From Eledone cirrhosa (Eukaryota), in contig OZ024741.1 in assembly GCA_964016885.1 (NCBI GenBank), positions 274,908,001-274,972,000 on the forward strand: 64,000 nt of DNA, read 5' to 3'. The position numbers and the translations under genes are program-made. The notes beneath the pieces were generated by a model. That model was not told the origin of the DNA. It saw only the letters and a program-made list of their open reading frames with translations, and ran no database searches. Position 1 is the stretch's first letter; each line of letters opens with the position of its first letter. Shown here one piece after another: positions 17,416 through 19,178 of this stretch.

Positions 17416-18711
17416 TTATACAATGCACAGTGCTAGCTAACGTCTCCAGCAACAAGCTGCATAAGGCTGACAGTATATTATAATATAGGCCTTGAAAGGT
17501 CAACTACAACTGCCCGAACTGTTATCACCACATGGAAAAAACTACAGCACTTTCAAAGTACATTTGGAAATTGAGAGAAGAAAAATGGAGAAACTACCAA
17601 ATACTAATGGACACGGCATTTAGAAATGCTACTTCCATCTTACAGAAAAACTCTACATCATCCACCGCTCTAGTTATAACTAGAACAATGAAATAATTGA
17701 CCAACCCAAAAAAACGGTCTAGTGTTTTGTGGTCAATGTTTATCTCACATAATTTGACATACACATAGGTACACACGAACGCATGCACACACACACACAT
17801 ATGTATATATATATATATATACATATATATATATATATATATATATATATATATATATATATATATATATATATATATATATATATATATATATACACAC
17901 ACACACACATATATATATGAATGGACTGACAGCTAGCGCCACCCCACTCCTTCATTCGGCCGCTGACCTCTGCCCGACCGACCCCATTTCACGCGCACGC
18001 GCGCTCTGCCGAATACCTCAGATATTCAAAACAACAAACAGCGGAGGACGCGTTTCGCACCTGTCCGACAGACAACCTTTACCCCGGGAAAAAAACCCCA
18101 GTTGATGGATGTGAATCCGAAATATATAGGGACTATTAAATCTCTCCCAAAGTAACTCTCTCTTGTGTTGTTATTTTTATTTTATCCTTTATACTCTTCC
18201 CTTCTTTCTTCAACACATTTACACATCTTATACACACCACGCATCTCAACGTACACCCACTTACATCTCTCTCTCCACCACCGGATCTTGTTACCCGGAG
18301 ATTTACCCATTTGCATTGTCGAGGCTTCCAAACGACTTAAAGATATTTACTTATTATTCCACAATGCTTCAAGCAAACTTCAATACTCTCTTATATATAT
18401 ATATATATATATATATATATATATATATATATATACACACATATATATATATATATATATATATATATATATATATATATATATATATATATATATATAT
18501 ACACACACACACACACACATATATATATATATATATATATATATATATATATATAAGAAATTGGATTTCGCTTCAAGCATAGCTTTATACGATATGTATA
18601 AATATTTCGTATCTCCAAAGAAATTCGGTTTTAGGAAGCCGTAGCTATGCAAACACCGGGGGGGGGGGGGCTAACGCCCTCTGGTGATGTCCAGCAGAAG
18701 CAAGGGGGACA

Positions 18712-18755
18712 ACCGTCTATGCATTTCAGGCTTAACTGGCCTTCGTCAGGACGGT
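18712..18755 (-). ncRNA. Minimal type I hammerhead ribozyme
   Basis: ACCGTC-CTGACGA-AGGC/CAGTTAA/GCCT-GAAA-TGCA-TA-GACGGT: canonical core, 6-bp stem I, palindromic ATGCAT stem III. Confidence 0.9.
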
Positions 18756-18995
18756 CCCTCCCACCGCTTGCGACTGCTGGACTAGAAGACAGGCGAGAAT
18801 ATATACTTTTCTCGTCTGTGTAAACATATCGTATAAAGCTATGCTTGAAGCGAAATCCTATTTCTTTTTTATTATAAGTTGAGCCAACTTATGCAGCTTC
18901 ATATGCAAATGAGATTAATCACCTCATTTACACAGACGAGAAAAGTATACATTCTCGCCTGTCTTCTAGTCCACCAGTCGCAAGCGGTGGGAGGG

Positions 18996-19039
18996 ACCGA
19001 ACTGACGAAGGCCAGTTAAGCCTGAAATGCATAGACGGT
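18996..19039 (+). ncRNA. Minimal type I hammerhead ribozyme (stem I has 2 mismatches)
   Basis: ACCGAA-CTGACGA-AGGC/CAGTTAA/GCCT-GAAA-TGCA-TA-GACGGT. Confidence 0.8.
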
Positions 19040-19178
19040 TGTCCCCCTTGCTTCTGTTGGACATCACCAGAGGGCGTTAACCCCCCCCCCCCCCCGGTGT
19101 TTGCATAGCTACGGCTTTCTAAAACCGTATTTCTTTGGAGATACGAAATATTTATATATATATATATATATATATATA

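Follow-up and report, generated by a model that had tools for sequence, protein, structure and literature searches.

A non-coding 332-nt hammerhead unit forms head-to-head fold-backs with a Penelope-like insertion footprint in Eledone cirrhosa

We analyzed a window of 64,000 nt from Eledone cirrhosa (assembly GCA_964016885.1, contig OZ024741.1, positions 274,908,001 to 274,972,000 of the forward strand), and all positions below are counted from its first letter unless a locus is named. Window positions 18555-19156 hold an insert lying inside a (TA)n repeat: a head-to-head pair of arms derived from a closed 332-nt unit in which segments A, C and B follow one another and B leads back into A. The plus strand reads A-C-B starting at 18824, and the minus strand reads B (18824 to 18597) followed directly by A, which merges into the left microsatellite. 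Unit positions (q) are numbered with q1 at 18824, and the period at the locus is 332 nt. The features are as follows.

18392-18555, no strand: left (TA)n/(CA)n microsatellite, the insertion target, read from the sequence
18555-18597, minus: segment A at the 3' end of the left arm, a Penelope-type 'tail' (distal start site, T; 74 of 168 arms in the family end there)
18588-18606, minus: head-to-tail junction from B to A within a short AT-rich palindrome, equal to the family's proximal start site (site B)
18597-18824, minus: segment B of the left arm, truncated at its 5' end (unit position 104)
18712-18755, minus: type I hammerhead with intact stems, predicted cut between 18718 and 18717 after AUA (from sequence and covariation)
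18824, no strand: head-to-head inversion junction, overlap of 1 nt
18824-18876, plus: segment A at the 5' end of the right arm
18877-18926, plus: segment C, two small hairpins in single copy, forming the loop of the fold-back
18927-19156, plus: segment B of the right arm, which stops at the proximal site and has no tail, as do 72 of the family's 168 arms
18996-19039, plus: second hammerhead with stem I broken, predicted cut between 19033 and 19034
19148-19178, no strand: right (TA)n microsatellite

An earlier note on this DNA had described a fold-back in which A both precedes and follows B. Its coordinates are correct, folding of the whole insert yields a single hairpin (-476 kcal/mol, z -50 relative to 20 shuffles), and the family proves to be spread genome-wide. 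The same note had put the unit at ~330 nt; the closed repeat unit stands, with its length corrected to 332 nt here and ~320-345 nt elsewhere. The two B copies share 96% identity across ~230 nt, and both A copies of the insert carry a rare C at unit position 7, a base present in 8 of 185 aligned copies. Consistent with the absence of coding capacity noted earlier, no ATG-started open reading frame longer than 58 aa occurs in the insert in any frame. Because its flanks lie inside the (TA)n repeat, a target-site duplication is unreadable. A transcript across the locus would give ~230 bp of double-stranded RNA in one long hairpin.

The minus-arm hammerhead motif comprises a stem I of 6-7 bp, the core CUGACGA, a 4-bp stem II with a 7-nt loop, GAAA and a palindromic 2-bp stem III; in unit numbering, stem I pairs q173-178 with q211-216, the core spans q179-185 and the predicted cut follows q210. 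In the plus-arm copy, a rare TC>AA change at 19000-19001 destroys two stem I pairs beside the core (aligned copies have T in 188/200 and C in 179/200 at these positions). The motif is thus present in each B, as the earlier note had claimed, but stem I of the plus arm is damaged, and the label 'minimal' is less apt: with helices of 6-7 bp (I), 4 bp (II) and 2 palindromic bp (III), the predicted geometry fits the 'canonical' metazoan type I class better than the 'minimal' one, as these are described in PMC4209133. Next to the core, the young subfamily has A-U where that source has G10.1-C11.1, a pair it describes as highly conserved. An Rfam scan of the window found nothing that passed gathering thresholds, and relaxing the limit to E<=10 brought up nothing but noise of the microsatellite type; the hammerhead call accordingly depends on the core motif and covariation.

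Across subfamilies 20-30% apart, the catalytic core and the NUH triplet are retained, the core varying between subfamilies at N7 and at H17, the cleavage base. Stem II reads GAAC/GTTC, GGAC/GTTC, GGAC/GTCC or AGGC/GCCT depending on the subfamily, stem I changes pairwise, and the stem III palindrome is retained or lengthened. Two-sided changes were found in 6 of 13 pairs, and 93% of cells are paired compared with 19-49% in slid controls, a signal that comprises about five to six events in few subfamilies, at loci chosen by exact patterns and with one mis-oriented row (L196) included. Some subfamily stems carry a mismatch (GTAC/GTTC in 14 of 277 parsed), and a pattern for a further stem II type had one match. 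Judged by these compensatory changes across subfamilies, the predicted type I hammerhead fold is under selection.

Within the 3.0-Gb genome, a DNA search with the unit returned 2,289 candidates, 40 of which were scored, and hammerhead patterns gave 376 exact matches (37 nt) and 2,120 near matches (26-nt core, at most two mismatches) against 0 for a reversed-pattern control. Median divergence from the column majority is 3.0% (154 long segments). The B-to-A junction is present at 104 of 116 loci and A-to-C contiguity at 81 of 116; the junctions read at this locus are thus not specific to it. The search for tandem arrays that the earlier note had proposed found two hammerheads in direct tandem at 16/116 loci and one long array, at locus L111 (G000:C2:83917000-83926500, positions 3631-6930), of about ten head-to-tail units that differ by roughly 7-14%, some with internal deletions. 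The window locus lacks direct tandem hammerheads, its two motifs lying on opposite strands; it therefore cannot release a monomer and is itself likely inert. Older (sister) subfamilies, reached via a loose end in public contigs and represented by 341 and 123 pattern matches in slightly overlapping sets, are mostly 65-85% identical to the window unit, with closed order and ends unchanged. Circular folding exceeds that of shuffles in five of five units (z -2.9 to -5.9), and GC is 37-45%.

The window also holds other mobile-element sequence. A truncated coding Penelope-like element at 33200-34250 (minus), with a GIY-YIG-like end, a 3' UTR, a hammerhead-like motif and a ~70-nt tail, was used as a control, and a separate fold-back of that family's terminal repeat lies in (TA)n at 35050-35680. 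The control family is very abundant (29,177 first-look candidates), and in one of its copies an open frame of 866 aa matches RT weakly, under the Pfam cut-off. Another family is represented by a broken Penelope-like element at 6877-8910 (plus), with an RT frame at 6877-8277 and a GIY-YIG frame at 8506-8826. Among the sampled loci, L066 and L072 carry coding Penelope copies that each form a head-to-head fold-back of their own, the open frames being mirrored. A further dispersed fold-back family (5903-6122, 12855-12997, 16020-16459, 21482-21936 and 23128-23480), with a hammerhead-like core at 21688 (minus) and 23445 (plus), probably represents a further terminal repeat of Penelope type. The (TA)n is immediately followed by an AT-rich stretch, 19178-20360, whose first bases have a weak inverted match at ~20341-20360 (E 0.056); we take it to be possibly a decayed Tc1/mariner-type DNA transposon. 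A 677-aa frame followed by an endonuclease-like frame at 58665-62500 is presumably LINE-like (ORF1-like plus endonuclease-like), and a separate long frame at 36409-37920 is, we assume, retroelement-like.

Segment A corresponds to the Penelope 'tail', and arms of the family terminate immediately before or after it, at ends ~50 nt apart: 72 of 168 end at q333 with no tail and 74 at ~q53 after the tail, placing 146 at one of two sites (counts exclude duplicates at L082, L096, L098, L102-104, L108, L110 and L172, locus L207, and the arrays L111 and L113). Beyond 100 of these 146 fixed ends, the adjoining 12 nt are TA-rich. Head-to-head fold-backs occur at 67/92 loci, and at 47/62 among loci picked only by hammerhead. 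One tailed arm is joined to one untailed arm in 78 of 83 classifiable fold-backs, where half would be expected, leaving five exceptions. By locus set, mixed ends are found in 55/59, 11/11 (fresh young loci) and 12/13 (older subfamilies, direct alignment), after exclusion of fold-backs with an unclassifiable end (22/81, 6/17 and 25/38, respectively). The coding control shows the same pairing in 10/10 clear cases, in a hand count where one arm was tailed by selection. At L113 (2010-3456), a fold-back insert is duplicated in tandem as a whole. Published descriptions of Penelope insertions include incomplete tandem copies, a neighboring copy in inverted orientation, a tail that is often confined to one end and a (TA)n bias (PMC8557442, PMC3846280), and purified Penelope protein, a predicted dimer, is reported to cleave and extend both strands, from two sites flanking the tail (PMC11167929). 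As far as these sources describe it, the combination of fold-back, tail and (TA)n target is an already published Penelope-like insertion pattern, and less surprising than first judged.

Coding Penelope elements, including one family in the window, show identical architecture, a likeness that favors reading the unit as the terminal repeat of such an element and the insert as two truncated stubs. At 287 lineage loci, with ~290 read of perhaps 1,500 or more, the unit was not found to run on into an open reading frame, whereas the hammerhead-bearing terminal repeat of the control family (33235-33570) enters its own endonuclease frame at 18 of 30 loci. A sense Penelope protein match lies less than 600 nt upstream at three loci (L105, L109, L364), but the three belong to different Penelope families, and at L109, the one of the three read base by base, the coding piece abuts the 3' end of an inverted arm. 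In subfamilies both young and old, reading upstream from B gives C, A and a further B, which refutes the stub reading as a general account. We regard it as very improbable, a rare coding ancestor being still conceivable, and among the 287 loci the unit was not found to be the terminus of a long coding element, the outcome that the earlier note had named as fatal to its own proposal. A similar verdict applies to the idea that a single cDNA snapped back to produce the fold-back, or that DNA was rearranged locally, the permutation being locus-specific. Rare variants common to both arms would fit such an origin, and for rotifer Penelope inversions whose joints are palindromic, self-priming has been put forward (PMC3846280). 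The right arm, however, carries A and C from upstream of the left arm's stop and cannot be a copy of the left arm, and the junctions recur across the genome. Containment of the B arm in the T arm is at chance (21/53; permuted mean 22.4) and arm lengths are uncorrelated. Rare-variant sharing per site is 0.0029 between opposite arms and 0.0025 between tandem units, compared with 0.0004 between loci (~seven times less), and the arms and tandem units of one locus mostly carry common subfamily markers. Because arm lengths are independent and rare variants are shared, we read the arms not as a snap-back but as two cDNAs from opposite nicks, in all likelihood independent first strands made on one RNA or source pool; gene conversion between arms could be an alternative source of the shared variants. 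Joints (n = 84) overlap by 1-15 nt in 52 cases and by more in 5, are blunt in 10 and contain inserts in 17. Containment and recurrence refute snap-back or rearrangement at this locus and as the main route, making it highly unlikely overall, and it may explain a minority of joints near the C hairpins. The template proposed in the earlier note, continuous over more than one unit and copied twice in opposite directions into (TA)n, matches the pattern of the family.

The unit is very probably non-autonomous and mobilized by Penelope machinery. Penelope protein matches occur in the flanks at 41 of 287 loci, with no shared continuation seen. Profiles of the unit and of its tail gave no match in 50 loci chosen by GIY-YIG matches, and no homologous pLTR was found in these and 50 control-family loci, a tiny share of the genome's Penelope copies, apart from one weak, separate match in a control flank. 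Hammerhead pairs 1.9-3.2 kb apart represent an array or separate insertions without an open reading frame. Free 5' ends adjoin the most abundant coding family in 3 cases, against ~2 by chance (1.2% of flanks, 170 free ends). At L252 (378-1665 of G000:C1:280448147-280451172), a tailed coding-family arm meets an untailed arm of the hammerhead lineage head to head, with an overlap of a few bases; further chimeric joints with the coding family are a tandem at L268 and one across a TA run at L244, adjacency being not above chance. As a single case, the L252 chimera hints at a shared enzyme and provides a candidate helper footprint. Its arms come from different elements, and one RNA molecule is therefore not always the source of both.

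Copying passes the predicted cut site freely: 5 stops fall there in 182 crossings (0.0021 per nt vs 0.0031 overall), and 34 of 90 untailed arms are longer than one unit. A cleaved linear monomer as the main template is rejected on these two grounds. Since the cut site is crossed without extra stops, the likely template is either a circle that was re-ligated or a tandem RNA left uncut. Among arms from site B, a weak excess stops after exactly one unit (15/49 vs 5/54 and 5/34 in neighboring bins), and arms from T show no peak there (8/43). An uncut linear tandem transcript could serve as template through the same two-nick insertion, the hammerhead then being retained because it binds protein, pairs with RNA or serves to trim the RNA at a later stage. 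This reading gains from the missing stop at the predicted cut, from the presence of tandem arrays in the genome (L111), from a weak stem III with an A-U pair adjoining the core, and from the reported preference of purified Penelope protein for unprocessed RNA, which was the dominant substrate in vitro, hammerhead cleavage being unnecessary for insertion there (PMC11167929). Cleavage in vitro was reported for one of nine frog retrozyme dimers (bioRxiv 10.64898/2026.07.22.740005). Against a linear template, arms are mostly ~1-1.7 units long and 5'-truncated, such that linear copying should shorten templates with every generation; the only long array seen, given the divergence among its units, is not a homogeneous master; and the core and NUH triplet persist across distant subfamilies. 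We hold the linear template to be a minority possibility that deserves serious weight. Cutting and re-ligation, shown for coral, mussel and axolotl repeats (PMC7229834), would most simply explain a selected catalytic core together with seamless copying, and on the sequence evidence a circular RNA template appears to us an evenly balanced proposition.

On balance, we lean towards a model in which a non-coding 332-nt hammerhead unit is inserted by a Penelope-like RT/endonuclease acting in trans, which would nick both (TA)n strands and copy a rejoined circular RNA from two fixed sites. A tandem locus would be transcribed, paired hammerheads would release a monomer, and the monomer would then be ligated. 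The borrowed Penelope protein would prime a first cDNA from the end of the tail and a second from immediately upstream of it, using one RNA or one pool of RNAs as template; both cDNAs would stop independently, and microhomology would join them head to head.

By its DNA-level features, the unit is a new, putative non-LTR retrozyme, that is, a non-autonomous Penelope-like element, as animal retrozymes have previously been proposed to be (bioRxiv 10.64898/2026.07.22.740005). As far as non-LTR retrozymes are described in the sources at hand (Cervera and de la Pena 2020, PMC7229834; Li et al. 2026, bioRxiv 10.64898/2026.07.22.740005; axolotl Rtz_331 / newt satellite 2), it shares with them a ~330-nt non-coding head-to-tail unit, one type I hammerhead per unit, a weak palindromic helix III, GC of 37-45% and above-shuffle circular folding; its 332-nt period falls within their size feature of a 150-450 nt head-to-tail repeat without coding. 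Unlike their long arrays, the family consists mostly of dispersed 1-1.7-unit arms in head-to-head fold-backs, and no pLTR homologue of the window unit was found among the 100 loci sampled. Two complete hammerheads in direct tandem, which define an 'active' locus in Li 2026, occur at 5 of 145 young loci (L007, L012, L026, L029, L169).

With EN+ Penelope-like insertions, as described by Craig et al. 2021 (PMC8557442), Arkhipova et al. 2013 (PMC3846280) and Frangieh et al. 2024 (PMC11167929), the family shares 5' truncation, partial tandems, an adjacent inverted copy, a one-ended tail, the (TA)n target, a hammerhead upstream of the tail and microhomology joints. Unlike those elements it has no open reading frame, its tail leads back into the unit and not into an RT gene, and that tail is ~45-50 nt long compared with 30-40. 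The RT plus GIY-YIG frame between pLTRs of autonomous elements is absent at the 287 loci (control, 18/30). Non-autonomous Chlamys elements, such as MRC1, are likewise described as non-coding and Penelope-dependent, with multicopy head-to-tail insertions (PMC8557442). They are algal, most are without canonical hammerheads, and their 3' ends resemble those of autonomous partners, a resemblance not found for the window unit. LINE-1 twin priming joins two target-primed cDNAs head to head, as proposed here; in the present family, by comparison, the arms cover the same sequence and start from two fixed sites 50 nt apart. A title and abstract search, with subscription papers, Repbase, Dfam and supplements outside its scope, found no cephalopod retrozyme and no end-pairing count, and the available sections of an octopus repeat annotation (PMC13282606) contain no mention of ribozymes.

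Collectively, the family links a retrozyme-type unit with a Penelope integration footprint at many loci, and bears on two questions in the literature, namely how non-LTR retrozymes are mobilized and what the Penelope hammerhead does. The near-strict pairing of a tailed with an untailed arm must be accounted for by any model of Penelope insertion, and the ribozyme has been preserved by compensatory change although the copying of the element ignores its cut site. Loci that carry two intact hammerheads in tandem occur naturally, and through them the existence of a circle can be put to a direct test. More tentatively, and with doubt on our part, the unit may be a ribozyme RNA circle that perpetuates itself, a viroid-like passenger of the genome that is turned directly into DNA by a borrowed dimeric Penelope enzyme, the two active sites of which load asymmetrically around the tail. 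If so, each fold-back would be the record of two rolling-circle cDNAs from one circle, the hammerhead would be selected for the circle's own cycle, and the family would provide sequence-level evidence on animal retrozyme integration and on the one-ended tails of Penelope elements.
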